DNA of 64,000 bases from an uncultured Enterobacteriaceae bacterium (GTDB taxonomy: Bacteria; Myxococcota_A; UBA9042). Of this stretch, positions 1-64,000 are shown piece by piece. The DNA lies in the NCBI GenBank assembly GCA_964438735.1, contig CAYTLW010000004.1, forward strand, positions 51,953-115,952. Direction: 5' to 3'. The notes beneath the pieces were generated by a model. The model searched no databases and was not told the origin of the DNA. It was given only the letters and a program-made list of their open reading frames with translations. Position numbers and translations under genes: made by a program. Position 1 is the first letter of the stretch. Each line of letters starts with the position of its first letter.

Positions 1-851
1 AGCAGGCCGACGAAGCCGATGATGCCGGCCAGGGCCACCGCCGCCGCCGCCAGGGCGCTCGACAGCCAGACGGCGGCCCGCATGACAGAACCATCGTCGA
101 CGCCGAGTCCCCGAGCGGTGTCGGCACCGAGCGCCAGGGCGTTGAGGTGCACCGCCCGGGCGACCCCCCAGATGCCGGCCAGCACGGCCATGGCGATCGC
201 CGGCAGCACCTGCCAGGCGGCGTCGGCCATCACCCCGCCCATGAGCCATTGGGTCGCCGCCCGAAGCTGCAGGTCGCTGGCCTGATAGAGCAGAAAGGAC
301 GTCGCCGCGCCGGCGAAAGCGGTCAACACCAGGCCGGCCAACAAGACGCGCTCGGGGCTCGCCGGGCCGCCGGTGCGCGCCAGCCAGAACGCCAGCGACA
401 CGGCCACCATGGCGCCGACGAAAGCGGCCAGGGGCTGGACCACGGGCAGCGCGGCGTCCAGGTTGAAGGGCAGCAGATCGCCGGCGGCCGCCGCCAATGT
501 CGCCACGCCAACGGCCGCGAGTGTGGCCCCGGCGCTGGTACCGACCAGGTAGGGATCGGCGACGGGATTGCGAGTGGCCGCCTGCAGCAGCACGCCCGCC
601 AGGGCCAGGCAGGCGCCCACCGCGAAGCTGCCCAGCACGCGCGGCAGGCGCACATCCAGCAGGATCGCGCTGGCGGTGGCGTGGCCGTCCGTGGTCGGGT
701 CCATCAAGCGGGTCAACAGGTCGAGGTTGGAGATGTCCGCCGGCCCGATGAGCATTCCCAGGGCGATGGAAGCCACGGCGATGAGTACCGAGACGCTCCA
801 GAGCAGCAACAATCGGCCGACGCGGCCGTTGGCAGTGCCGTCGCTGCTCAC
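1..851 (-). CDS. FecCD-family ABC transporter permease (BtuC-like), 3' truncated by window edge
   Basis: Hand translation of the minus strand from a GTG at 851..849 gives VSSDGTANGRVGRLLLLWSVSVLIAVASIALGMLIGPADISNLDLLTRLM...LPRVLGSFAVGACLALAGVLLQAATRNPVADPYLVGTSAGA, the classic FecCD/BtuC signature. The GTG overlaps the TGA of the upstream gene as GTGA. The ORF runs off position 1, which is why it is not in the ORF track. Confidence 0.8.
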   Translation of the reverse strand, partial: MSSDGTANGRVGRLLLLWSVSVLIAVASIALGMLIGPADISNLDLLTRLMDPTTDGHATASAILLDVRLPRVLGSFAVGACLALAGVLLQAATRNPVADPYLVGTSAGATLAAVGVATLAAAAGDLLPFNLDAALPVVQPLAAFVGAMVAVSLAFWLARTGGPASPERVLLAGLVLTAFAGAATSFLLYQASDLQLRAATQWLMGGVMADAAWQVLPAIAMAVLAGIWGVARAVHLNALALGADTARGLGVDDGSVMRAAVWLSSALAAAAVALAGIIGFVGL

Positions 852-15355: not shown

Positions 15356-17818
15356 ATGCGCGTGAACTACCTGTCCAGAACCGCGTTGTTGTTGTGCCTG
15401 CCCCTCGCCGCGATGGCGTCGTTGTGCACTGGCTGCGGACGAAAGGCACCGGCCACTGCGGGCCCGTCGGCCACCTCCAAGGCCGCCACCGCTGCGGTTG
15501 CCAAGGTCGCTGCGCCCGAGGCCAACTATGTGCCCACCATGTCCACGCATCCCGGCACCTTGCCCTACGAGGCCGCCACCGATCGCGCCATCGCTGCAGC
15601 CCTGAAGGCTCAGCCGGCCGATTATCGACCACGCACCCGTCACCACGGCGGTCGGGTCCACGCCAGCGCCGGCAAACATGTCGAGCCTCGCGCCCCAGCC
15701 GGGGCCAAGCCCAACTACACCAATCGCCTGATCCTGAGCAGCAGCCCCTACCTGCGGCAGCACGCCCACAACCCGGTCGACTGGCGACCCTGGGGCGAGG
15801 CGGCGTTCGCCGAAGCGCGCAAGCTGGGCCGACCCATCTTCCTCAGCGTCGGCTACTCCACCTGCCACTGGTGCCACGTGATGGAGCACGAGAGCTTCGA
15901 GGACCTGGAGATCGCCCGCGTGATGAACACACGCTACGTGCCCATCAAGCTGGATCGAGAAGAGCGGCCGGACGTGGATGCGGTCTACATGGCCGCGGTG
16001 CACGCCATGGGCATGGGCGGCGGCTGGCCCATGTCGGTGTGGATCGCGCCCGGCAAGGGGGGCGCCGGAAAGGCCGTACATGGCGTGCCCTTCTTCGCCG
16101 GCACCTACTTCCCGCCGCGCCAGTCTCGCGGCCGTCGCCGCGGCTTCCTTGGCCTGATGAACGACCTGGCCGATCGCTTCGCAGAGGACCCCGAAGGCAT
16201 CGCCGCCAAGGGCAACCGCATCGCCAGCCAGTTGCGTCGCAAGCTGGAGACCGATTGGACAGGCATCGTCGCCGATACCACCTCGGTCGACCGTCTGGTG
16301 GCCCAGGTCCGCAGCGTCTACGACAACCAGCACGGCGGCACGCGGCGGGCGCCGAAGTTCCCCTCCAACATCCCCTACGGCGTGCTGATGCGGCATCACC
16401 TGCGCACCGGCGATCGCGAGAGTCGGCGCATGGCCGTGCACTCCCTGGAGCGCATGCGCATGGGTGGCATCTATGACCATGTCGGCGGTGGTTTTGCCCG
16501 CTACAGCACCGACGTGCGCTGGCTGGTGCCCCACTTCGAGAAGATGCTCTACGACCAGGGGCTGATCACCAAAGCCCTGGTCGAAGCCTGGACCGTGAGC
16601 TCCAAGCCCAGCATGGCGCGGACCATCCGCCAGACGCTGGACTACCTGCTGCGCGAGATGCGCCACCCCGGCGGCGCCTTCTATTCGGCCACCGATGCCG
16701 ACAGCGAGGGCGAAGAGGGGCGCTTCTTCCTGTGGACGCCGGCGCAGCTGCAGGCGTTGCTGAGCAAGGAGGACGCGGCGCTGGTGGCCGAGATCTACGA
16801 CGTGACGCCCGGTGGCAACTTTGAACACCGCAACATCCTGCACCTGAGGGAGGACCTGGACGTCTGGGCCCAGCGCAAAAAGGTCGCCGCGCCGGCCCTG
16901 CGAAAACGCCTGCGATCGGCCCTGGATCGCCTCTATACCGAACGCGCCAAGCGGGTGCCGCCGCTGCGCGACGACAAGATCCTGACCGCCTGGAATGGCC
17001 TCATCATCAGCGCATTTGCCCGCGCCGGATTGTCTCTGGCGGAGCCGCGTTATGTGCAGGCGGCCGGCAAGGCGGCGGACTATGTGCTCGCCACCCTGCG
17101 CGACGACCAGGGACGGCTGCTGCGCACCGCGTTGGGCGGCAAGGCGAGCGGCATGGCTGTGCTGGATGACCACGCCTTCTTCATCGAGGCGCTGATCGAT
17201 CTCTTCGAGGCCACCGGAGAGCAGCGCTGGCTCGCCCAGGCGCTGCGCCTGCAGGCCAACCAGGATCGCTGGTATTCGGCACCGAATGCGGCCGGCTACT
17301 TCACCACCGCCACGGACGCCCAGTCGCTGCTGGCGCGTGAGAAGCCCGACTACGATGGCGCCATCCCCTCGGGCAACTCGGTCTCGGCCATGAACCTGGT
17401 GCGCCTGGCGGCCATCACCGGCGAGTCGACCCATCGCAATCGTGCCGTGGCTACCATCCGCGCGTTTTCGCGGCGATTGCGCAACTATCCCATCGCCATG
17501 AGCCGGATGCTGGTGGCGGTGGAGGCGCTGGCCTGGCCCATGAAGGAGGTCGTCCTGGTGCGCCCGGCGGGCAGCAAACCCGAGGCTTTTGCCCCCATGC
17601 TGGCCGCGCTGCGCCGCACCTGGCAGCCCCACCACGTGCTGGTCATGGTGGAGCAGGGATCGTCTTTGGAGAGGCTCGCGTCCCTGGCCCCGCCCGTGCG
17701 CGGCAAAATCGCCCGCGATGGCCGGGTCACGGCGTATGTCTGCAAGGAGGGAGCCTGCAGGCTGCCTACCACGCAGCCGGCCAAGATGATCGAACAGCTG
17801 CTTGCGCGTGGCGGTTAG
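15356..17818 (+). CDS. Thioredoxin-domain protein, DUF255/YyaL family, lipoprotein
   Basis: ATG at 15356 ([27 protein letters not shown]). DUF255 core with CxxC: [43 protein letters not shown]-terminal six-hairpin glycosidase-like region. Confidence 0.85.
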
Positions 17819-17860
17819 CGGACCGGCTCCGGTCGTCCACCGGCCGATCTGGCTGGCGAC

Positions 17861-18907
17861 TCAGCGTTTGCGTGGTCGTCGTAGGAGCGTGCGACGGGCT
17901 TCGACACGACCCTGCTCGTCGTGGAACGACAGGGCGAGCGAGTCGTCGCGCATGATCAGCCAGGCCCAGCCCAGGGTGCTGGCCGCCCAGATGCTGCCCT
18001 CTTTGGCCTCGACGTCGCGCAGCTGACCCGCCGCACCGCTGATGATCTGGTGTACGCCGCACTCCGGTTCGAGCACTTCCTTGTTGTGGTCGTGGCCGGA
18101 GATGTAGACGTCCACGCGGTCGCAAAGAATGGCCCGTAGCCAGTCGCGCAATTCGCCCTCGGCGTCGCCATGCTGGCCGCTCGAGCGCAGCGGGTGGTGG
18201 CCCAAGGCGATCACCCAGGCTTCGCCCTTCTCGGCGCTCTTGCTCAGTACCTCTCGGGCCCAGCGCGATTGCGGCTCGCCGCGCGCCTGCGTGTCCAGGA
18301 CCAGGAAGCGCACGCCGTCGCGGATGAAGGTGTACCAGGCAGCGGGCAGTCGGCCGTCCAGAATGCCGCGCTTGCGGGCCGGTGAGCCGTCGGCCCACGC
18401 CTTCACCATGGCGTCCGCGTTACCGTAGTGGTCGTGATTGCCCAGGCTGAAGTACAGCGGTACGCCCAGGTCGGCATAGGGTTTTTCGACGCGCTCGAGC
18501 AGGTAGGGATCGGCGGGCGATCGGATGCCTTCGGGGTAGACGATGTCGCCGGTGTGCAGCCCGAAGCCGCACTTCTCCTTGGCGCAGAAGGCGGCCAACG
18601 CCTTGCCGACCCGGAATGCGCCCGGGCTGGCGGTGCCGCCGTCGCCGAACGCGAAGAAACGGGCCTGAACGCCCGTGATGCGCTCGCCCTGGAGGGTGCC
18701 AGCGGTGGTCGCCGTTGCCGCGGCTTGCGGCTGCGCTGACCTGGCGGCCTCCAGCGGCCGATCGGCGATGCTGGCGCTGGATCTGGACTGGTTTGGGGCG
18801 GGATCCGCCTGGCGGGTCTGGCGCTTACAACCAGGTCCGACGAGCAGCAGGACGATGCCGACGAGGAAGACCCTCGACAGCCGCGCTGCGCTGCGGTTGG
18901 CGCTCAA
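17861..18907 (-). CDS. Calcineurin-like metallophosphoesterase, lipoprotein
   Basis: TTG start at 18907 (MSANRSAARLSRVFLVGIVLLLVGPGC). Metallophosphatase motifs GDGG / GD..Y / GNHD / GHHP / GHDH. Its start overlaps the stop of the upstream small gene. Confidence 0.8.
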   Translation of the reverse strand: MSANRSAARLSRVFLVGIVLLLVGPGCKRQTRQADPAPNQSRSSASIADRPLEAARSAQPQAAATATTAGTLQGERITGVQARFFAFGDGGTASPGAFRVGKALAAFCAKEKCGFGLHTGDIVYPEGIRSPADPYLLERVEKPYADLGVPLYFSLGNHDHYGNADAMVKAWADGSPARKRGILDGRLPAAWYTFIRDGVRFLVLDTQARGEPQSRWAREVLSKSAEKGEAWVIALGHHPLRSSGQHGDAEGELRDWLRAILCDRVDVYISGHDHNKEVLEPECGVHQIISGAAGQLRDVEAKEGSIWAASTLGWAWLIMRDDSLALSFHDEQGRVEARRTLLRRPRKR

Positions 18908-19143
18908 TCTTTGCCCGAGGCGCTCTTCTTCATGCGCATGTCGGTGTGAAGGCGATCGGCCTTATCCTGCATGCTGGCGACCTTGCGGTAGAGCTGGCTG
19001 AAGTGGGGGTTCTGCAGGAATTTCATCAAGTGATTGCGGCCACGAAAATCCGTCGTCGTCGCGGTATCGATGATCTCCTTGAGGATTCTGATCTCGTTGC
19101 GCGTGAACGAATTGCTGACGCGGATGACCGGCTGCTTGCTCAT
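18904..19143 (-). CDS. Small hypothetical protein (79 aa), lower GC than its surroundings
   Basis: ATG at 19143 (MSKQPVIRVSNSFTRNEIRILKEIIDTATTTDFRGRNHLMKFLQNPHFSQLYRKV...). Its stop overlaps the metallophosphoesterase start. AT-rich codons. Confidence 0.5.
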   Translation of the reverse strand: MSKQPVIRVSNSFTRNEIRILKEIIDTATTTDFRGRNHLMKFLQNPHFSQLYRKVASMQDKADRLHTDMRMKKSASGKD

Positions 19144-19463
19144 CTGGGGCACCACTCTCTTGATTCGGCCCCGACTGGAGCGGCGGGGGCGCGCGTTATC
19201 GCACCGATCGGCAGTTTGGATCAAGGGCGAGGCAATGTCACGTCTGGGCCCGGGATTGGAACCTCCCACAGTTCGCGGGCTTGTAGGTAGACCGGTGCCT
19301 TGGCCAGCGCAGCGTTGTCCTGGGCCCGGGCCTCGACTATCGTGGTCCGGCGCCGCCGACTGCGATCTGTGGCGCCACTCCGACGCCATCGGCCGCCCGC
19401 AGTTGCGCCGAAGAATTTGCCGCCGATCGCAGCCCGGCGGCGGACTGGAGTCGATCGTCAGCC

Positions 19464-20525
19464 ATGCCCACAAGCGCCATGCCCGCCGTCGATCTGCGCA
19501 GCGATACGGTCACCCGGCCGGGCGTCGCCATGCGCGCGGCCATGATGGATGCCGTCGTTGGCGATGATGGTTTCGACGACGATCCCACGCTGCACGCGCT
19601 GCAGCGACGAGTGGCCGGGTTGCTGGGCAAGGAGGCGGCGATCTACGTGCCCTCGGGTACCATGGCCAACCAGCTGGCCATCCGCCTGCAGAGCCAGCCT
19701 GGCGACGAGGTGGTCTGCCATCGACTGGCCCACATCCGCGGCCACGAAGCCGGCGGCCCTGCAGCCCTGTCCGGAGTCACCCTGGCCCTGTACGACGGCG
19801 CGCGCGGCCTGCCCGATGCCAGGCATCTGGCCGGATTGTTGCGAGTTGGTGAAGACGGATTGCAGGCGCCAACCGCGCTGGTCTGCTTCGAGAACACCCA
19901 CAACGCCTGTGGCGGCGTGGTCCTGGCGCCCGATCAGCTGTCCGAATGCCTGGCGCAGGTCCGGGAGCGCGCCATCGCCCTGCACCTGGACGGCGCCAGG
20001 ATCTGCAACGCGGCGATCGCTTCGCAGACCTCTCCGGCGACGCTGGCGGGGCCCTTCGACACGGTCTCGCTGTGCCTGAGCAAGGGCCTTGGCGCCCCCA
20101 TCGGCAGCCTGTTGGCCGGACCGAAAGACCTGATCGCGCGCGCTCGCCGAATGCGCCGCATGTTGGGTGGCATGATGCGGCAGGTGGGCATTCTGGCTGC
20201 GGCTGGGCTGTATGCGCTGGATCACCATGTGGAACGTCTGGCCGACGACCACCGCCGCGCTGCGGCATTGGGTTCTGCGTTGGCGGCGCTGCCCGGCGTC
20301 GTGATCGAGGAGCCGCAGACCAACATCGTCGCCTTTGACCTGGACGACGGGCATCCCGCCCTGGCGCGACATGGCGGTCGGCCGGCCATCGCCCGAGCGC
20401 TGGACGACGCTGGCGTGCGCCTCACGGCCAGGGCCGTGGGTTTCCGGGCCGTGCTGCACCTGGACGTGGATGACGCCGGATTGGAGCGGGCGATCGCGAC
20501 CCTCAGTCGGGTGCTGGCGCCATGA
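19464..20525 (+). CDS. ltaE: Low-specificity L-threonine aldolase
   Basis: MPAVDLRSDTVTRPGVAMRAAMMDAVVGDDGFDDDPTL...YVPSGTMANQLA...CLSKGLGAPIGS (PLP lysine context). ATGA overlap with the next gene. Confidence 0.85.
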   Translation: MPTSAMPAVDLRSDTVTRPGVAMRAAMMDAVVGDDGFDDDPTLHALQRRVAGLLGKEAAIYVPSGTMANQLAIRLQSQPGDEVVCHRLAHIRGHEAGGPAALSGVTLALYDGARGLPDARHLAGLLRVGEDGLQAPTALVCFENTHNACGGVVLAPDQLSECLAQVRERAIALHLDGARICNAAIASQTSPATLAGPFDTVSLCLSKGLGAPIGSLLAGPKDLIARARRMRRMLGGMMRQVGILAAAGLYALDHHVERLADDHRRAAALGSALAALPGVVIEEPQTNIVAFDLDDGHPALARHGGRPAIARALDDAGVRLTARAVGFRAVLHLDVDDAGLERAIATLSRVLAP

Positions 20526-23152
20526 AGCCTCGCAAGCGCCGACCCGATGTCTCCCTCACCCTGCGCCTGAACGGGGCCCCTGTGGCCTGGACCGGCGATC
20601 CGGACGGATTGCTGCTGGACTGGCTGCGCGACGACCTGGGCATCACTTCGGTCAAGCGTGGTTGCTCGCCCCAGGCGGGTTGCGGCAGCTGTACCGTCAG
20701 CGTAGACGGCGAGCCGCAGCTGGCCTGTTCCTTCAAGATGCGCCGCGCCGCCGGCCGTCATGTGCGTACCCTGGAGGGGCTCGATCCGACCATCACCACG
20801 GCGGTGGCCGAAGCCATCGCCGGTCGCGCTGGCACCCAGTGCGGCTACTGTGCGCCCGGCATCACCATGAGCGCGGCCCTGCTCCTGGCCCGCGAGCCGG
20901 CGCCGGAGCGTACGCGCATCGCCGCGGCCATGGACAAGCACATCTGCCGCTGCACCGGCTGGGTCAAGGTGCTGGATGCGGTACAGACCGCCAGCGGCCT
21001 GTTGCAGGGCGCCACGCTGCCCACCCCGGGCGGCGGGGTCGGCGCAGGACGGGCCAAGCTGGACGCGCGCCACCTGGCTCTTGGACAGCGGGACTTCGCC
21101 GGCGACCTGGCCGAACCCGACATGCTGCACGGCGCCCTGGTGCTGAGTCATCACGCCAGGGCGGTGGTACGTCGGATCGACACCGGCGCGGCGCTGGCCC
21201 TGCCCGGGGTGGAGCGCGTGCTGCTGGCGACCGATGTGCCGGGCGATCGACGGGTTGGCCTGAAGTCACGTGACTGGCCGGTGCTGGTGGCGGCGGGCGA
21301 GACCACCCGCTATGTGGGCGACTGCCTGGCGGTGGTCCTGGCCAGCGATCGACGGGTGGCGCGCCAGGGCGCGGCTCTGGTCGCCGTGGACTACGAGGTT
21401 CAGCCGGCGATCGTCGATCCGGACGCTGCGCTCGCCGCTGACGCGCCGGCCCTGCATCCAGGCGGCAACCTGCTCTCGCACACGGTCATTCAACGGGGCG
21501 ATGTGGACGCGGCGCTGGCTGATGCGGCGTTCGTGGTCGAGCAGCGCTACGTCACCCAGCGCGTGGAGCACGCCTTCCTGGAACCGGAGGCTTGCCTGGC
21601 GGTGCCGCAGGAGGACGGCGCGCTCGAGGTCTTCTCCCAGGGACAGGGCATCTACGAAGATCGGCGCCAGCTGGCCCGCTTGTTGGACTGGCCCGAGGAC
21701 AGGGTGCGGGTCCGCCTGGTGGCCGCTGGCGGCGCATTTGGCGGCAAGGAGGACCTGAGCGTGCAGGGCCAGGCCTGCCTGGCCGCCGTGGCGACGGGCC
21801 GGCCGGTGCGCGTGGAGTTGTCCCGCGACGAGTCGATCCGCCTGCATCCCAAGCGACATCCCATGGTCATGGATTGGCGTCTGGGCTGCGACGCCGACGG
21901 GCGCCTCACCGGGCTCAGTGCGCGCATCGTCGGCGATGGCGGTGCCTACGCTTCGGTGAGCGCCGAGGTGTTGGCTCGTGCGGCCTCCCATGCCACCGGC
22001 GGTTACGACGTGCCGGCGGTGGACATCGAGGCCTTGGCGGTGTTCACCAACAACCCGCCCAGCGGCGCGTTTCGCGGTTTCGGCGTCAACCAGGTGCATT
22101 TCGCCATGGAGTGCGCGGTCGACGAGCTCTGCGAGTTGGGCGGCTTCGACCGCTGGCAGATGCGCTGGGATAACGCCCTGCGAGCGGGTTCGCGAACCGC
22201 AGCGGGTCAGGTGCTGACCGGTCCAGTGGGCTTGCGGGATTGCCTGGAGGCGGTGCGACCAGCCTTCGAGGCGGCGCCCAGAGCGGGCCTGGCGCTGGGT
22301 ATGAAGAACGTCGGTATCGGTGGCATGACCGCCGACGTCGGACAGGCCCGGGTCGTCGTCCTGCCCGGAGGCCGCCTGCAGATCCAGCATGGCTTCAGCG
22401 AGATGGGCCAGGGCGTGCAGACCATCGCCACGCAGTTGTTGTGTGAGGGACTGGCCGGCTGCGACGGCCTCGACCCGGCGACCATCGACGTCGTGGTCGA
22501 CACCGCCAGCGACCTGGCCGTAGGCATGACCACGGCCTCGCGGGCCACCTCCCTGCTGGGCGGCGCGATCCTCGACGCCGCCGCGGCGTTGCGGTCGGAG
22601 CTGGATGATCGCGGTCTCGCCGGTCTCGCAGGCCGCTCCTACACCGGCCGATGGCGGCCCGCCGAAGGCAAGCTCGAGCCCGGCGCGGAGCATCACCACT
22701 ACAGCTATGGCTGGGCGGCGCAGCTGGCCATCATCGGCGACGACGGGCGGGTCGAACGCGTCGTCGCCGCCCACGACGCCGGCCGGGTCATCAACCCGAT
22801 GCTCTTCGAGGCCCAGATCGAAGGCGCGGTACACATGGGCCTGGGCTACGCGTTGACCGAGGCGCTGCCCTGCGATGACGACGGCTGGCCATGGAGCACC
22901 CGAATCCGGGATTGCGGCGTGTTGAGCGCCGCCGACGTGCCGGAGATCACCGTGGTCGCCGTCGAAAACCCCGATCCCAACGGCCCGCTGGGCGCCCGCG
23001 GCATCGGCGAGATCGGCCTGGTGCCGACCGCACCAGCTGTAGCCAACGCCCTCTGGGCTGCCGACGGCAACCGACGTCGACAGTTGCCCATGGGCACATT
23101 CAAGCGGCGGATTCGCAAGCGACCCGTAGTACCCGTGGCCCCATCGGATTAG
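20522..23152 (+). CDS. Molybdopterin aldehyde oxidoreductase / xanthine dehydrogenase family (N-terminal [2Fe-2S] x2 fused to Mo-binding subunit, no FAD domain)
   Basis: Both ferredoxin Cys clusters are present (CSPQAGCGSC...C and QCGYCAPG...CRCTGW). The a/b hammerhead and MoCo-binding domains follow. The architecture resembles Desulfovibrio MOP-type enzymes. Confidence 0.8.
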   Translation: MKPRKRRPDVSLTLRLNGAPVAWTGDPDGLLLDWLRDDLGITSVKRGCSPQAGCGSCTVSVDGEPQLACSFKMRRAAGRHVRTLEGLDPTITTAVAEAIAGRAGTQCGYCAPGITMSAALLLAREPAPERTRIAAAMDKHICRCTGWVKVLDAVQTASGLLQGATLPTPGGGVGAGRAKLDARHLALGQRDFAGDLAEPDMLHGALVLSHHARAVVRRIDTGAALALPGVERVLLATDVPGDRRVGLKSRDWPVLVAAGETTRYVGDCLAVVLASDRRVARQGAALVAVDYEVQPAIVDPDAALAADAPALHPGGNLLSHTVIQRGDVDAALADAAFVVEQRYVTQRVEHAFLEPEACLAVPQEDGALEVFSQGQGIYEDRRQLARLLDWPEDRVRVRLVAAGGAFGGKEDLSVQGQACLAAVATGRPVRVELSRDESIRLHPKRHPMVMDWRLGCDADGRLTGLSARIVGDGGAYASVSAEVLARAASHATGGYDVPAVDIEALAVFTNNPPSGAFRGFGVNQVHFAMECAVDELCELGGFDRWQMRWDNALRAGSRTAAGQVLTGPVGLRDCLEAVRPAFEAAPRAGLALGMKNVGIGGMTADVGQARVVVLPGGRLQIQHGFSEMGQGVQTIATQLLCEGLAGCDGLDPATIDVVVDTASDLAVGMTTASRATSLLGGAILDAAAALRSELDDRGLAGLAGRSYTGRWRPAEGKLEPGAEHHHYSYGWAAQLAIIGDDGRVERVVAAHDAGRVINPMLFEAQIEGAVHMGLGYALTEALPCDDDGWPWSTRIRDCGVLSAADVPEITVVAVENPDPNGPLGARGIGEIGLVPTAPAVANALWAADGNRRRQLPMGTFKRRIRKRPVVPVAPSD

Positions 23153-23181
23153 TCTGCCGGGGCTGAATTCAGGGGGCACTC

Positions 23182-24906
23182 ATGGTCACCAGCGGCGAAC
23201 GACTCATCGAGACCATCCGCGGCGCCATCATCGGCGACGACCAGGTGCTGGAGGGCCCCTATGGTCCGCGTCGGGTCACCTACGCCGACTACACCGCCTC
23301 GGGCCGGTCGCTCACCTTCATCGAGGACTTCATCCGTCACGAGGTGATGCCGCTCTACGCCAACACCCACACAGAGACTTCGGGCACCGGTCGGCAGACG
23401 ACGCGATTTCGCGAGGACGCGCGCCGGATCATCCTCAAGGCCGTCGGCGGTGGCGAAGATGATGTGCTCATCTTCTGTGGTTCCGGCGCCACCGGCGCGA
23501 TCCACCACATGCTGGAGGTGCTCAATCTGCGCATCCCCTCCGACCTGGACGCTCGCCACGGCTTCAGCGCCCAGATTCCAGCCGAACAGCGGCCCGTGGT
23601 CTTCATCGGCCCCTACGAGCATCACAGCAACGAGATCCCATGGCGGGAGTCCATCTGCGACGTGGTGGTCATCGACGAAGACGCCGATGGACGCATCGAC
23701 CTGCAGCAACTCGAGGCCGGCTTGCTGGCCCACGCCGACCGACCGCTGCGCATCGGCAGCTTCTCCGCGGCCTCGAACGTCACCGGTATCGGCTCGGATA
23801 CCCGCGCCACGGCCGCGCTCCTGCACAAACATGGGGCGCTGTCGTTCTGGGACTTTGCCGCCGCCGGGCCCTACGTGCAGATGGAAATGAACATGGCCGA
23901 CGACGAGCCCGACGGCCACCTCGTCTACAAGGACGCCATCTTCCTGTCGCCCCATAAGTTCATCGGCGGCCCGGGCACGCCGGGCGTGCTCGTGGCCAAG
24001 AAGAACCTGTTCAAGAACTCGGTGCCCGCGGTGCCCGGCGGCGGCACCGTGGCCTACGTCAACTACCTGGAGCATCGCTACCTGGACGACATCGCCCAGC
24101 GCGAAGAGGGCGGCACGCCGGACATCATCGGCGCCATCCGCGCCGGGCTGGTCTTCCAGCTCAAAGAAGCGGTAGGCGCACCGCAGATCCGCGAGCTTGA
24201 GCACGACCTCGTGCAACGCGCAGTGGCCGCCTGGCACGACAACCCGGCCCTGCACATCCTGGGCAATCACGAACGCTGGCGGCTGTCGATCGTCAGCTTC
24301 GTGGTGCGTCACAGAGACCGCTTCTTGCATCACGGCTTCGTGGTCGCCCTGCTCAACGACCTGTTCGGCATCCAGGCACGTGGCGGCTGTTCCTGCGCCG
24401 GGCCCTATGGTCACCGGCTGCTGGGTATCGACCTGAAGCGCAGCCAGGCCTTCGAGCGCGAGATCCTGCGCGGTTGCGAAGGTGTCAAGCCGGGCTGGGT
24501 GCGGGTCAACTTCAACTATTTCATCTCCGAGCAGGTCTTCGACTTCGTGGTGCAGGCCGTGAACATGGTCGCCGAACACGGCTGGAGACTGCTGCCCGAC
24601 TACGTCTTCGAGCCCGAATCCGGCCGCTGGCGCCACCGCGACGCCCCCGAATCCGCAGCCATGGGCCTGGACGACGTGACCTACCGCAGCGGCCGCCTGG
24701 AGTATCGCTCCCGACACGCCAGCGAACCCGAATGGGCCCTGCCGGGCTACCTGGAGCAGGCCCGAAAGGTCCTCGACGGCGCGGAGCAACGCCACCGCGG
24801 CCAGATCATCGCCGACCCACCCCTGAACCCCGACTTCGAACAACTACGGTGGTTCACCCTGCCCGGCGAGGCCTGGCCCGATGAGGGGTCAGGTATTGAC
24901 ACCTGA
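23182..24906 (+). CDS. Aminotransferase class-V fold PLP enzyme (NifS/cysteine-desulfurase-like, possible MoCo sulfurase partner)
   Basis: PLP-lysine motif FLSPHKFIGGPGTPG (SxHKxxGPxG). It is 574 aa long and lies immediately downstream of the Mo-enzyme. Confidence 0.65.
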   Translation: MVTSGERLIETIRGAIIGDDQVLEGPYGPRRVTYADYTASGRSLTFIEDFIRHEVMPLYANTHTETSGTGRQTTRFREDARRIILKAVGGGEDDVLIFCGSGATGAIHHMLEVLNLRIPSDLDARHGFSAQIPAEQRPVVFIGPYEHHSNEIPWRESICDVVVIDEDADGRIDLQQLEAGLLAHADRPLRIGSFSAASNVTGIGSDTRATAALLHKHGALSFWDFAAAGPYVQMEMNMADDEPDGHLVYKDAIFLSPHKFIGGPGTPGVLVAKKNLFKNSVPAVPGGGTVAYVNYLEHRYLDDIAQREEGGTPDIIGAIRAGLVFQLKEAVGAPQIRELEHDLVQRAVAAWHDNPALHILGNHERWRLSIVSFVVRHRDRFLHHGFVVALLNDLFGIQARGGCSCAGPYGHRLLGIDLKRSQAFEREILRGCEGVKPGWVRVNFNYFISEQVFDFVVQAVNMVAEHGWRLLPDYVFEPESGRWRHRDAPESAAMGLDDVTYRSGRLEYRSRHASEPEWALPGYLEQARKVLDGAEQRHRGQIIADPPLNPDFEQLRWFTLPGEAWPDEGSGIDT

Positions 24907-59131: not shown

Positions 59132-62100
59132 ATGAACGGTCGTGGTTGGGGCGCAGCGCATTGGTTCGTTGGCACCAGGTTCGTCAGCACGTGGTGCATC
59201 GTCCTGGCAGCTGCGCTGGCAGCCGGCGGTTGCGAAGCGCCCGTGGAGACGACCGACGAACCCGCCGATACCACGACCGGCGGCGGTGAAGACGCCATCG
59301 TGGACGCCACCGTGGCCGACCAGGCCAGCACCGGCGGCTGCAAATCCGACGACGACTGCGAGGCCGACGCGCCCGTCTGCGACACAGCGTCTGGCAAATG
59401 TGAAGGCTGCACCAAGGACGACCAATGTGACGCCGATCGCCACTGCCTGGACGGCAAGTGCCCCGCGGATGTGTGCAAGAAGGGCGAAAAGAAGTGCGAC
59501 GGCCCCGGCAAGGTCGCCCGTTGCGCCGACAATGGCGGCGCCTTCGACCCCACTCCCTGCGGCGACAAGGAGATCTGCGAGGACGGCAACTGCCTCAAGG
59601 TGGTCTGCAAAGCCGACAGCAAGAAGTGCGAGGACAACGGCGTGGCGACCTGCAACAAGCTCGGCACCGCCTGGGGCGAGGCCACCAAATGCAGCGACAC
59701 CCAGACCTGCGCCGCCGGTGTCTGCCAGGATCACGACTGCAAACCGGCCAGCACCAAGTGCGAGAACGCGTCCATCCTGACCTGCCAGGAGGACGGGCTG
59801 GGTTGGAAGACCACCGCCTGCAAAGATGGCAGCGATGGCGGCGCGGCGCAGTGGTGCGCAGACGTCGAGGGCACGCCCACGTGCCAGGATCAGACCTGCC
59901 AACCCACCCAGACGGCCTGCAAGGACGGCATCGCGGTGGTCTGCAAGGATGACGGCCTAGGCACCACCGTGGTCGAGGACTGCACCAAGAAGGATCCCGA
60001 CGGCGGCCCCGGCAAGACCTGCATCTCGGGCAAGTGTGTCTCGCTCAACTGCGTGCCCAAAAGCACCAAATGCGCCGGCAAGAACCTGGTCACCTGCAAG
60101 GATGATGGCCTCGGCGTGACCACCAAGTCCTGCGGCGCCCAGATGGGCTGCGAGGACGGCAAGTGCATGCCCATCATCTGCCTGGCCACCAGCGAATTCT
60201 GCGACGGCAAGGTGGCCAAGAAGTGCAACCTCTTCGGCACCAGCGCGACCGTGACCGACGACTGCCCCAAGGCCGACAAGACCTGCTCCAAGGGCAAGTG
60301 CGTCGAGTACGTGTGCAAGCCCGGCGCCATCAGCTGCGGCGCGGGCGGCGGCCAGGTGCAGACCTGCAACGCCGACGGGCTGTCCTACAAGGCCAAGAAC
60401 TGCACTGGCGGCACCACCTGCGTCAAGGACACCTGCAAACCGGTCATCTGCACCCCCGATTCGATGTTCTGCAAGGGCGCCGAGGTCAAGAAGTGCGATG
60501 CAACTGGCACCAGCAGCGCCACCGACGCCACCTGCGCCAAGGACAAGGTCTGCCTGCAGGGCAAGTGCGTGCCCAAGGTCTGCGACGCCGGCGAGCTCAA
60601 GTGCAACGGCCTCAAGGCGACCCAGCAGTGCAAACCCAGCGGGCTGGGCTGGACCGACAAGAGCTGCGCGGACAAGACCGCATGTGACAAGGGCCAATGC
60701 CTGCCCCAGGTCTGCAGCCCGTCGGCCCTGCAATGCGACGAGGGCAAGGCCAACAAGTGCGACGCCAAGGGCTTGAAGTGGGCGCTGGCGGGCGACTGCA
60801 AATCCAAGGGCCAGAACTGCATCGCCGGCAAGTGCGTCGACTATGTCTGCAAGGCGGGCGCCAAGAAGTGCGACAAGGGCAAACTGGCCACCTGCGCCAA
60901 GAGCGGCATGTCCTGGAGCCAGGCGACCTGCGGCAAGGACACCATCTGCGATGCGGGCTCCTGCGAGCCCCTGATCTGCACGCCCAAGCAGAAGAAATGC
61001 GCCAACAACAAGGCCATGGTCTGCAACGACCTGGGCACGGTCTCCAAGCTCGTATCCGACTGCACCAAGAGCAAGCAGAACTGCGTCAAGGGCGCCTGCG
61101 TCGACTTCGTCTGCAAGGCCAAGACCAGCAAATGCGAGGCTGGCGTGCGCATGATCTGCGCCGATGACGGCATGGCCTGGAACAATGCGGCCTGCGGCAA
61201 GGGCACCATCTGCGAGGCGGGCGCGTGCAAGAACGTCGTCTGCGAGGCCAAGAAGGCCTTCTGCAAGGGCCACCTGGTGCAGCAATGCAACGACCTGGGC
61301 ACGGCGGCCAAAGATGGCGACGACTGCAAGGCCAAGGGCAAGGCCTGTGTCGCCGGCAAGTGCGTCGACCTGCTCTGCAAGCCGGGCGCGCTCAGCTGCA
61401 AATCCGGCAAACTGCGGACCTGCAACGCCGACGGTCTCGGCTGGACGGCCAAGGATTGCGCGGCGGGCACCGCGTGTGTGAGCGGCGTGTGCAAGACCGT
61501 CATCTGCAAAGCCGACCAGCTCGCCTGCAAGGGCAGCGTGCTGCAGACCTGCGATGCCACCGGCACCGCCATCGCCAAGACCGTCGACTGCGCCGCCGAC
61601 AAGAAGAAGTGCTCGGCCGGCAAGTGCGTCGCGGCCATCTGCAAGGCCGGCACCACCACCTGCCAGAGCGGCCAGCTGGCCACCTGCGACGCCGGCGAAC
61701 TGTCCTGGAACAAGCAGTCCTGCGGCGTCGGCAAGGCGTGCGATGGCGGCAAATGCCTGGCTGTCATCTGCACGCCGAACAAGGCAACCTGCAAGGTGCG
61801 GCAGGCCTACAAGTGCAACGCCACCGGCACCGCCAATCCGCTGCTGACCGACTGCAAGAAGCTGGACAAGGCCTGCGTCAACGGCGAGTGCAAGCCGCTG
61901 CTCTGCAAGCCGGGGGCCGTCAAATGTGACGGCATCAAGCTGGCCACCTGCAATCTCGACGGGCTCACCTGGAAGAGCGCCGACTGCGCCAAGGGCAAGG
62001 CCTGCGCGGGCGCCAAGTGCGTCGCTGTGGCCTGCAAAGCCAACGAGAAGTCCTGCGACGGCTTCAACGCCATGTTGTGCAACGCCAGCGGGACCAAGAA

Positions 62101-64000
62101 CGAGCTCCAGGCCGCCTGCGACAAGCAGGGCAAGGCCTGCAAGGCTGGCAAGTGTGTGCCCCAGGTCTGCAAGCCGGGCACCAAGACCTGCCTGCAGAAA
62201 GACGCCATGGTCTGCAACGCCGACGCCCTGGGCTGGAAGGTCACGGCCTGCGGCGGCGACACGGTGTGCGAGAACGGCGTCTGCGCCAAGAAGATCTGTA
62301 CCCCCTTCAAGCCCTTCTGCGACGCCAAGGCCAACGCGATCAAGATGTGCAATCCCCTGGGCACCGATGGGGTCACCGTGACGCCGTGCAAGTCCAATGA
62401 GCTGTGCATCGGTACGCAGTGCGAGACCAAGGTCTGCGAGCCCAACAAGCAGGGCTGCAAGGACCTGGCCACCCTGACGGTCTGCAACTCGACGGGTACC
62501 AGCGCCAAGGAGTACCCCTGCGGCTCCGGCAAGGTCTGCTACAAGGGCGGCTGCCCGAACAAGCTCTGCGAGCCGTCGGCGAAGTTCTGCGAAAAGAACG
62601 TCAGCATCCAGTGCGCCGCCACCGGCCTGTCCAAGAGCACGCTGGCCGATTGCAGCAAGACCAACCAGGTCTGCGTCAAGGGCAAGTGCCTGGACAAGAT
62701 CTGCAAGTCCGGCGCCCTGTCCTGCATCGACGGCCAGGTGGGCACCTGCAACTCTGACGGCATGGGCTGGACCAAGAAGCCCTGCGATGACGGCAACGCC
62801 TGCACCTCCAACGGCTGCAAGGATGCCAAGTGTGCGTACGGCGCGCCCAAGACCTGCAACGACGGCAACGTCTGCACCACCGACAAATGCGACACCTCCA
62901 ACGGCAAGTGCAGCAACAAGGCCGTCGGCGGCAACTGCGACGATGGCAGCAAGTGCACCTTTGGCGAAACGTGCGTCAGCGGCGTCTGCAAGGAAGGCAA
63001 GTGGGGCGTGGTCAGCACCCTGGCCGGCACGGGCTCCAGCGGGGTCGCCGATGGCGCGGCGAACAAGGCCACCTTCAACGGTCCATTCGGCGTCACGGTG
63101 GGTGGCGATGGCACAGTGTACATCGCCGGCTTGAACGGTCAGCGCATCCGCCGCATCAAGGATGGCACCGTCAGCCTGTGGGCCGGCAGCTCGGCCGGTT
63201 TCGCCAACGGCAAGGGCTCGGCGGCGAAGTTCAACAATCCGTCCGGCATCGCCGTCGACGCGGAGGGCACCGGCTATGTGGCCGACCAGAACAACCACAA
63301 GATCCGCCGGATCGAGGGCGATGGCATGGTGACCGTGCACGCCGGCGGCAAGGCGGGCTTCATGGACGGCGCGCCCGAGGTGGCCCAATTCGATCATCCC
63401 GTGGGCGTCGCCGTCGACAAGGCGGGCAACGTCTACGTGGCCGATCGGCTCAACCATCGCATCCGCAAAATCAACGCCATGGGCGTGGTCAACACCCTGG
63501 CCGGCTCGGGCAACGCGGGCAACAACGACGGCCCCGCCGCCCAGGCCCGATTCCGCTATCCCATGGGCATCGCGGTCGATGGCGCGGGCAACGTCTACGT
63601 CGGCGACGAGTACTACGCCCGGGTGCGCAAGGTCGCGCCCAACGGCACCGTGAGCACGCTCGCCGGCGGCAGCATGGGCTACAAGGATGGCAAGGGCAGC
63701 GCAGCCCAGTTCGCCGGCCAGCTCGGCGTGGCGGTCAACCTCTACGGCCAGGTGGCGGTCGCCGATCGCAAGAGCCAACGCATCCGCCTGATCAGCCCAG
63801 ACGGTCAGGTCACCACCATCGCCGGCACGGGCTCGGCCTCTTTCTCAGACACCGTGGCCAACCAGGCCCGCTTCAACCAGCCCACCGGCGTGGCCTTCGA
63901 CCACTGGGGGCGCATCGTCATCGTCGACTCCGGCAACCGGCGGATCCGCCTGTTGACCCCGTCCAAGCTCTCCTGCGACGACGACAACGTCTGCACCAAG
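59132..64000 (+). CDS. Giant exported protein: about 26 tandem 42-45-aa six-Cys modules, Myxococcus-type CxDGNxCTxDxC repeats, then NHL-repeat beta-propeller; 3' truncated by window
   Basis: Hand-translated; absent from the ORF track because no stop falls in the window. ATG at 59132 with SD GGAAGGGGGG. Signal WCIVLAAALAAGGC. Repeats such as CKAGAKKCDKGKLATCAKSGMSWSQATCGKDTICDAGSCEPLI. NHL blades: FNGPFGVTVGGDGTVYIAGLNGQRIRRI, FNNPSGIAVDAEGTGYVADQNNHKIRRI, FDHPVGVAVDKAGNVYVADRLNHRIRKI. Confidence 0.85.
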   Translation, partial: MNGRGWGAAHWFVGTRFVSTWCIVLAAALAAGGCEAPVETTDEPADTTTGGGEDAIVDATVADQASTGGCKSDDDCEADAPVCDTASGKCEGCTKDDQCDADRHCLDGKCPADVCKKGEKKCDGPGKVARCADNGGAFDPTPCGDKEICEDGNCLKVVCKADSKKCEDNGVATCNKLGTAWGEATKCSDTQTCAAGVCQDHDCKPASTKCENASILTCQEDGLGWKTTACKDGSDGGAAQWCADVEGTPTCQDQTCQPTQTACKDGIAVVCKDDGLGTTVVEDCTKKDPDGGPGKTCISGKCVSLNCVPKSTKCAGKNLVTCKDDGLGVTTKSCGAQMGCEDGKCMPIICLATSEFCDGKVAKKCNLFGTSATVTDDCPKADKTCSKGKCVEYVCKPGAISCGAGGGQVQTCNADGLSYKAKNCTGGTTCVKDTCKPVICTPDSMFCKGAEVKKCDATGTSSATDATCAKDKVCLQGKCVPKVCDAGELKCNGLKATQQCKPSGLGWTDKSCADKTACDKGQCLPQVCSPSALQCDEGKANKCDAKGLKWALAGDCKSKGQNCIAGKCVDYVCKAGAKKCDKGKLATCAKSGMSWSQATCGKDTICDAGSCEPLICTPKQKKCANNKAMVCNDLGTVSKLVSDCTKSKQNCVKGACVDFVCKAKTSKCEAGVRMICADDGMAWNNAACGKGTICEAGACKNVVCEAKKAFCKGHLVQQCNDLGTAAKDGDDCKAKGKACVAGKCVDLLCKPGALSCKSGKLRTCNADGLGWTAKDCAAGTACVSGVCKTVICKADQLACKGSVLQTCDATGTAIAKTVDCAADKKKCSAGKCVAAICKAGTTTCQSGQLATCDAGELSWNKQSCGVGKACDGGKCLAVICTPNKATCKVRQAYKCNATGTANPLLTDCKKLDKACVNGECKPLLCKPGAVKCDGIKLATCNLDGLTWKSADCAKGKACAGAKCVAVACKANEKSCDGFNAMLCNASGTKNELQAACDKQGKACKAGKCVPQVCKPGTKTCLQKDAMVCNADALGWKVTACGGDTVCENGVCAKKICTPFKPFCDAKANAIKMCNPLGTDGVTVTPCKSNELCIGTQCETKVCEPNKQGCKDLATLTVCNSTGTSAKEYPCGSGKVCYKGGCPNKLCEPSAKFCEKNVSIQCAATGLSKSTLADCSKTNQVCVKGKCLDKICKSGALSCIDGQVGTCNSDGMGWTKKPCDDGNACTSNGCKDAKCAYGAPKTCNDGNVCTTDKCDTSNGKCSNKAVGGNCDDGSKCTFGETCVSGVCKEGKWGVVSTLAGTGSSGVADGAANKATFNGPFGVTVGGDGTVYIAGLNGQRIRRIKDGTVSLWAGSSAGFANGKGSAAKFNNPSGIAVDAEGTGYVADQNNHKIRRIEGDGMVTVHAGGKAGFMDGAPEVAQFDHPVGVAVDKAGNVYVADRLNHRIRKINAMGVVNTLAGSGNAGNNDGPAAQARFRYPMGIAVDGAGNVYVGDEYYARVRKVAPNGTVSTLAGGSMGYKDGKGSAAQFAGQLGVAVNLYGQVAVADRKSQRIRLISPDGQVTTIAGTGSASFSDTVANQARFNQPTGVAFDHWGRIVIVDSGNRRIRLLTPSKLSCDDDNVCTK

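Follow-up and report, generated by a model that had tools for sequence, protein, structure and literature searches.

The DNA stretch analysed here, called the window throughout, comprises 64,000 nucleotides (nt) of contig CAYTLW010000004.1 (GenBank assembly GCA_964438735.1; an uncultured Enterobacteriaceae bacterium by name, Myxococcota_A UBA9042 by GTDB lineage) and has a G+C content of ~67%. Its end carries, on the plus strand, the 5' part of a gene encoding a long tandem array of Cys-rich units (59132..64000). The frame is open from 59033 through the window end, and the gene probably starts with the ATG at 59132, which lies after GGAAGGGGGGGG and has a ribosome-binding site of the GGAAGGGG type. 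This ATG coincides with the first residue of P0001, a database protein with a length of 2066 amino acids (aa) to which the 1622 window-encoded residues are 100% identical. The match means that the gene continues for ~1.3 kb outside the window; it has 6,201 nt in total, of which the 5' 4,869 nt lie inside. The initial annotation placed the array in a giant gene, which overstates the case: the product is large rather than giant, and the gene is separate from the two upstream open reading frames (ORFs), which terminate in stops at 56845 and 58992. GC content by codon position in the array-gene frame is 0.50/0.53/0.93. A 1273-codon ORF on the minus strand (59957-63778) overlaps the array, and its GC content by codon position (0.93/0.52/0.52) mirrors that of the plus-strand frame, so it is regarded as an artefact caused by the GC-rich coding sequence on the other strand.

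P0001 consists of a putative lipobox, an acidic linker, a small Cys motif, the tandem array, a Dicty_CTDC segment, an NHL propeller, a second Dicty_CTDC segment and an endostatin-like C-terminal domain. By inspection the N-terminus is lipoprotein-like and fits the layout of a signal peptidase II substrate (positively charged n-region, hydrophobic h-region, lipobox with Cys), with a putative signal peptide (59132..59233) in which MNGRGWGAAHWFVGTRFVSTWCIVLAAALAAGG precedes the Cys; the segment ...IVLAAALAAGG ends directly at Cys34, giving a lipobox-like LAAGG-Cys motif with Ala at position -3. An acidic Thr/Gly-rich low-complexity tether of 35 residues follows (aa 35-69, 59234..59338), also recognised by inspection, and then a 45-residue motif delimited by its Cys spacing and containing eight Cys (aa 70-114, 59339..59473). 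This N-terminal motif differs from the array units and weakly matches positions 314-387 of the 666-position NCBIfam TraA model (E 0.0022, far under the cut-off), a stretch assumed to be the Cys-repeat region of that model.

The array itself (aa 115-1233, 59474..62830) parses by Cys spacing into 25 consecutive units of six Cys each, 150 Cys in total. A hidden Markov model (HMM) built from 230 units of P0001 and its relatives likewise counts 25, and the assignment is further supported by autocorrelation and by an AlphaFold model of units 11-14. Two unit types, 13 of type A and 12 of type B, alternate strictly and without exception. Type A units usually have 43-44 residues (units 3 and 7 are longer), a Cys spacing of 7, 8-10, 12, 6, 5 and usually a GxxW motif. 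Type B units have 44-46 residues, mostly 45 (51 in unit 4), with a Cys spacing of 7, 8-10, 13, 6-7, 5, a D preceding the fourth Cys (C4) and a G-K-C close to the unit end. The loops following C4 are longer in units 3 and 4, which measure 159 and 153 nt, respectively; the other 23 units span 129-138 nt. The initial annotation had described ~26 copies of ~126-135 bp that alternate between a W-containing and a W-less subtype. The tandem array is real, and its motifs, coordinates and unit size had been read essentially correctly; the copy number is 25 rather than ~26, and the real repeat is a 264-bp di-unit. The alternation of subtypes holds as well; nine of the 13 A units and two of the 12 B units contain a W.

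The true period of the array is therefore the A+B di-unit, corresponding to 88 aa or 264 bp. Cys-Cys coincidences number 87 at a lag of 88 aa, compared with 28.6 +/- 1.8 (maximum 36) in 1000 shuffles, and the identity of the non-Cys residues peaks at the same lag. At the DNA level, identity reaches its maximum at a lag of 264 nt (48% vs. a mean of 34%), and a repeat search of the DNA recovers families that lie 264 nt apart with 60-77% identity. Tandem Repeats Finder did not detect the array in the window DNA because the copies are too diverged.

Besides Cys, the conserved residues of the units are mainly Gly and Pro, together with L/V13, T15, N17, W23 (type A), D28 (type B) and a terminal V/I. 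The remaining positions are variable and hydrophilic. Successive units are joined by junctions of four residues, with the conserved V/I at the end. The amino acid composition is unusual in that the array contains 13.8% Lys and 0.4% Arg, giving a net charge of +45, compared with 5% of each in the neighbouring gene, and this in a genome rich in GC (67%). This bias of Lys over Arg is limited to the immediate subclade of relatives. The AAG codons may explain a positive AT skew observed at 58-64 kb.

With Cys making up 13.4% of the array, the residues could in principle serve in metal binding or redox reactions rather than form structural disulfides, and a Cys-rich gene nearby has a weak MopE-type copper-binding match on record. 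This explanation is judged highly improbable. The protein is exported, each unit has an even number of Cys at fixed spacing, and the units give a confident β-hairpin model. CxxC motifs and His-rich motifs are absent from the array (His 0.2%), and no metal-binding family was matched in the Pfam and NCBIfam scans. The view that conserved six-Cys modules with regular spacing occur in an exported protein was borne out across the wider family, in which 349 of 459 units contain all six Cys; the rest are shortened local alignments and not units that have lost Cys. A search for paired Cys loss across the same 459 units, intended to reveal the disulfide pairing, found none, which makes this approach uninformative.

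The array is old and did not arise by recent slippage, in line with the initial annotation. Copies of the same type share 37-39% amino acid identity, 27-29% outside the Cys positions, and 55-59% nucleotide identity (~57%). The codon identity at identical residues between copies is 0.83, approaching the 0.78 expected at random from array codon usage, and with a GC content at third codon positions (GC3) of 0.93 this means that the synonymous sites are near saturation. The initial annotation also cautioned that arrays of this length can collapse in short-read assemblies. All available assemblies are probably short-read, which leaves some room for a copy number produced by the assembler. Exact repeats within the array reach at most 20 nt (12-13 nt in four coding regions used as controls), the copies are 47-69% identical at the nucleotide level and, as noted above, Tandem Repeats Finder detects no array. 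Furthermore, the 4,869 window nt of the gene are identical in JGI 3300009008 (a 171 kb contig), JGI 3300008954, and ENA ERZ23498639, three contigs that come from at least two samples. Given the short exact repeats and the agreement of three assemblies, collapse or expansion by the assembler is very unlikely, and an explanation of the array by assembly artefact or recent slippage can be set aside as practically negligible.

A further suggestion was that the units carry diversifying surface residues, and a comparison of nonsynonymous and synonymous substitution rates (dN/dS) among the copies had been proposed. Under this explanation the variable non-Cys positions would be under diversifying selection for recognition specificity or for evasion of phages or predators. 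The non-Cys identity of only ~28% between copies of the same type is compatible with such selection, and a naive NG86 estimate between copies gives a dN/dS of ~1.3. As a sign of positive selection this value was rejected, since at a GC3 of 0.93 and with nearly saturated synonymous sites dS is not measurable (codon identity 0.83 vs. 0.78 at random) and the ratio therefore says nothing on positive selection. There is also no nucleotide difference among the three contigs over the 4,869 window nt of the gene. The 90% cluster has one further member, which is of equal length and differs by a single residue, G1396A, located in the NHL domain and thus outside the array. Diversifying selection is accordingly considered very improbable.

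The structure of the repeat was modelled with AlphaFold2 for units 11-14 (60848..61375, 176 aa), using an alignment of ten tetra-units from the same array. The model is all-β with five short strands per unit, and has a mean predicted local distance difference test score (pLDDT) of 93.0, with values of at least 90 in every 10-residue block, and a predicted template modelling score (pTM) of 0.57. Confidence is steady across the four-residue unit junctions, which suggests that the units form a continuous rod. A structure comparison of the unit model found no close solved fold. Weak matches of single units were obtained to CBM14/tachycitin-type domains, with scores under the usual confidence level. 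The unit is read here, on the basis of the model, as a small disulfide-rich β fold that has no close solved relative and would share its topology class with CBM14/tachycitin-type domains.

This likeness raises an alternative in which the units themselves bind a ligand, such as chitin or another polysaccharide, in the manner of CBM14/tachycitin-like domains, so that the array would be a 25-valent rod analogous to the insect peritrophins. The array units have no sequence match to the CBM14/peritrophin-A/tachycitin group, and their Cys spacing differs. In CBM14 domains, moreover, several conserved aromatic residues bind chitin, whereas the array units have one conserved aromatic, and this only in alternate units. 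Binding by the units is considered unlikely. A more specific form of the idea, that the units represent a new disulfide-rich fold family which is distantly CBM14/tachycitin-like and itself binds chitin, peptidoglycan or exopolysaccharide, is unlikely. If it were true, P0001 would be a 25-valent cationic binding rod, the bacterial counterpart of insect peritrophins, and not an inert spacer.

Scans of Pfam and NCBIfam at E <= 10 with the whole protein and with one, two, and four units found no family model that matches the array units. The only NCBIfam model on the units was C_rich_MXAN6577 (E 0.14, 12 bits vs. a cut-off of 100), and none reached E < 0.1, with the TraA model TIGR04201 assumed to be present in the release. 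No EGF family appeared at E <= 10 on the window units, and the TNFR cysteine-rich domain had no Pfam match on them and only insignificant structural scores; the array units differ from EGF-like and TNFR domains in lacking a CxC and in their spacing of 7, 8, 12/13, 6/7, 5. The array unit does resemble ADAMTS_CR_2 in the motif C..C....C....W....CG.G..C..G.C. This disintegrin-like lead was rejected, as the Pfam match is limited to unit 1 (E 0.01, 16.7 bits vs. a threshold of 27.3 bits), the only sequence match in the PDB is an ADAMTS-1 chain at E 1.4, and there is no structural support. The Neocallimastix CysRRep ends in CC and has a different spacing, and is thus another module.

Dicty_CTDC is, like the array unit, a short Cys-rich extracellular repeat, and it occurs in the same protein on both sides of the NHL propeller. 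The Pfam model (PF00526) has 24 positions and the motif CDDxNxCTxDxC, from which the array units differ. In the array no Dicty_CTDC match lies above the gathering score; the only match close to it, at aa 1241-1263 (E 0.001, below the cut-off), straddles the end of unit 25. Kinship was rejected after an hhalign comparison of the di-unit with the CTDC repeats of P0001 returned a probability of 1.2%.

The module defines a large family. Its members are recognised by units of the form C-6-C-7..9-C-11/12-C-5/6-C-4-C-4, usually alternating between A and B and located N-terminal to a variable head, and both a regular expression and the HMM find 25 such units in the window array. Searching 1.84 billion cluster representatives with a di-unit profile gave 2,699 matches at E <= 1e-3, 1,286 at 1e-10 and 375 at 1e-30. 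A family consensus built without P0001 reproduces both subtypes and the A/B alternation. The source names of the relatives include Deltaproteobacteria, Myxococcales, and Myxococcota metagenome-assembled genomes. A comparison of repeat number with relatives, which the initial annotation had proposed, gives counts that vary from 3 to 27 by HMM among 50-odd relatives, and from 9 to 25 in those of the NHL type. P0155 has 27 units, P0105 and P0107 have 25 like P0001, and P0109 has 24. The array of P0001 is hence among the longest and not unique.

In nearly all of the 50-odd relatives the array is N-terminal to the head, and the heads differ. Seven relatives examined with Pfam and the unit HMM carry the array before RCC1, LamG with a C-type lectin, FGE-sulfatase (twice), FG-GAP, a lamin tail, and a di-haem cytochrome c peroxidase. 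Further relatives have NHL and LamG heads, with LamG lying within the array span in P0107, and a DUF1566 head is found in the Pfam lists on record. A lipobox is present in 19 of the 20 strong matches whose N-termini were read, for example LGCA, VGCG, TGCG, and SGCE. No conserved gene neighbourhood of the array genes was found among the compared loci. In GCA_020632665.1, the genome of the relative P0004, a second giant paralogue of at least 3110 aa with NHL, Dicty_CTDC, and TLD domains is encoded at 17342-23989 of locus L017; it lies one gene downstream of P0004 on the same strand, with a 401-aa ORF between them.

P0001 was also compared with P0105, a protein of 2354 aa that contains a lipobox, array, Dicty_CTDC, and NHL domain. 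P0105 is collinear with P0001 (35% identity), and its array likewise comprises 25 units. There is no positional orthology between the units of the two proteins, as the non-Cys identity between units at the same position (0.228) is no higher than that between other units of the same type (0.222). The shared count is therefore no evidence of a conserved length ruler. For 41 of the 50 units the nearest neighbour is in the same protein, and similarity falls mildly with distance along the array. These sequence comparisons suggest that the arrays underwent lineage-specific remodelling or concerted evolution. The arrays would therefore have been remodelled by duplication or conversion of di-units since P0001 and P0105 split, unless differing compositions of the two arrays mimic this pattern.

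The domains following the array in P0001 begin with a short Dicty_CTDC-like Cys-rich connector (62831..63001, CNDGNVCTTDKCD..., Pfam Dicty_CTDC E 0.001). The NHL-repeat β-propeller extends over aa about 1291-1610 (63002..63961) and is matched by both Pfam NHL (E 1.7e-23) and TEN_NHL (E 1e-23). Of the teneurin superfold, which combines an FN-plug, NHL and a YD-shell, only the NHL part is matched; no YD/RHS or FN-plug was found in aa 1-1622, in the C-terminal 456 residues or in the full-length Pfam list. The second Dicty_CTDC region begins at 63962..64000, as placed by Pfam and the database protein, and the part of P0001 past the window has six significant Dicty_CTDC matches (E 7e-36).

Beyond these lies the C-terminal domain of ~185 residues (aa 1881-2066, positions 15641-16201 of locus L001). 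It weakly matches endostatin in Pfam (E 0.023) and among PDB sequences (E 0.035-0.2), and the leptospiral LenA/LenB endostatin-like outer-membrane protein in NCBIfam (E 0.013). Foldseek matches it to 1koe (E 6e-4, probability 1.0); as the underlying model is poor (pLDDT 51.5), this match is supportive only in combination with the three weak sequence matches. The endostatin-like domain is kept at the C-terminus of five related proteins with an array and an NHL domain.

Taken together, the interpretation favoured here with moderate confidence is that the array serves a cell-surface lipoprotein as a stalk, which would be generic, portable and stapled by disulfides. Several lines of evidence argue for a stalk. 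The number of units varies from 3 to 27, as is typical of spacers, the array precedes different heads in seven relatives, 19 of 20 N-termini carry lipoboxes, and there are no conserved gene neighbours. The tetra-unit model, with a pLDDT of 93 and no dip at the junctions, adds to this, as do the strict A/B alternation, the retention of six Cys without paired loss and the hydrophilic nature of the variable positions. The stalk or adhesin role proposed in the initial annotation is in keeping with this architecture of anchor, array, and varied heads. Overall, the interpretation given in the initial annotation is supported in part.

According to this stalk model, the protein would be exported by Sec and Cys34 would probably be lipid-anchored. 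The ~150 Cys of the array would probably be oxidised in the periplasm, forming ~3 disulfides per 44-residue unit, and each unit would fold as short β-hairpins. With junctions of just four residues that close with a conserved V/I, the 25 units may stack to form a single stiff, uninterrupted rod and not a floppy chain of beads. EGF and TNFR modules of similar size span 2.5-3 nm each. If each array unit does the same, the rod would be ~60-75 nm long. This would exceed the periplasm, and the protein should therefore sit at the surface. There the rod would hold the NHL propeller, the second Cys-rich segment, and the endostatin-like domain off the membrane, where they may bind a ligand. The non-Cys positions would drift freely provided that they remain hydrophilic, and the number of copies would change slowly, over long time scales, as A+B di-units are duplicated.

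A number of observations weigh against the stalk interpretation. The pTM of the tetra-unit is only 0.57, which may reflect an elongated shape or uncertain geometry between the units. At position -3 the lipobox departs from the canonical form, and localisation to the outer membrane or surface is assumed. The weak fold likeness to chitin-binding CBM14-type domains is compatible with a binding role of the units. Finally, the strong bias for Lys (13.8%) over Arg (0.4%) and the resulting charge of +45 are not explained by a passive spacer.

A stalk of this kind has a precedent in TraA of Myxococcus xanthus, whose unrelated Cys-rich tandem repeats have been proposed to form a rigid stalk that displays a PA14 domain (PMC3325183). 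Like P0001, TraA (TIGR04201) is an exported surface protein of myxobacterial type in which Cys repeats separate a membrane anchor from a binding domain, and the same role is proposed for the repeats. The two differ in that the TraA repeat has three invariant Cys (PMC3325183) and the P0001 unit six, and in that TraA is anchored by a C-terminal MYXO-CTERM whereas P0001 would be anchored by an N-terminal lipobox. The proposed role is also analogous to that of the EGF stalks of eukaryotic receptors such as the teneurins.

The array gene is preceded by a run of three plus-strand genes for exported proteins. The first (52974-54971, L001 3843-5840) encodes a Cys-rich protein of 665 aa with weak Dicty_CTDC and Cu-binding_MopE matches on record. 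The second (54998-56845) encodes a signal-peptide protein that has no Pfam match on record and contains another coding tandem repeat (55609-56190), which consists of five 117-bp copies with a match of 77%. Its units have 39 aa, KDTNSTYSGKNFALSNKxCGSGxxxRGVDANGNxVCxKD, with two Cys each. The third (57004-58992), immediately upstream of the array gene, encodes 662 aa with a PPDK_N domain typical of PEP-utilising enzymes; its N-terminus, VLAVLAAGCGADD, resembles a lipoprotein signal, which is odd for such a domain. Downstream of the array gene (L001 16295-18495) are an NAD-dependent epimerase and a DegT-type aminotransferase, associated with sugar modification. These are followed on the opposite strand (L001 20118-26201) by a NiFe hydrogenase cluster with the maturation genes HypA, CobW-like, and HycI.

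The idea of Cys-rich tandem-repeat stalks on bacterial surface proteins is already known from TraA, and the array of P0001 adds no new biological principle. Although at least 2,699 protein clusters contain this six-Cys A/B module, neither Pfam nor NCBIfam has a model for it, and it lacks a close relative among solved structures. In many large lipoproteins it accounts for over half of the sequence, and apart from it these proteins are annotated by their head domains alone. Defining the family would improve the annotation of a large block of sequence now labelled hypothetical in Myxococcota-like genomes. It would also offer a well-behaved, confidently modelled target for structure determination and a modular rigid spacer of tunable length.

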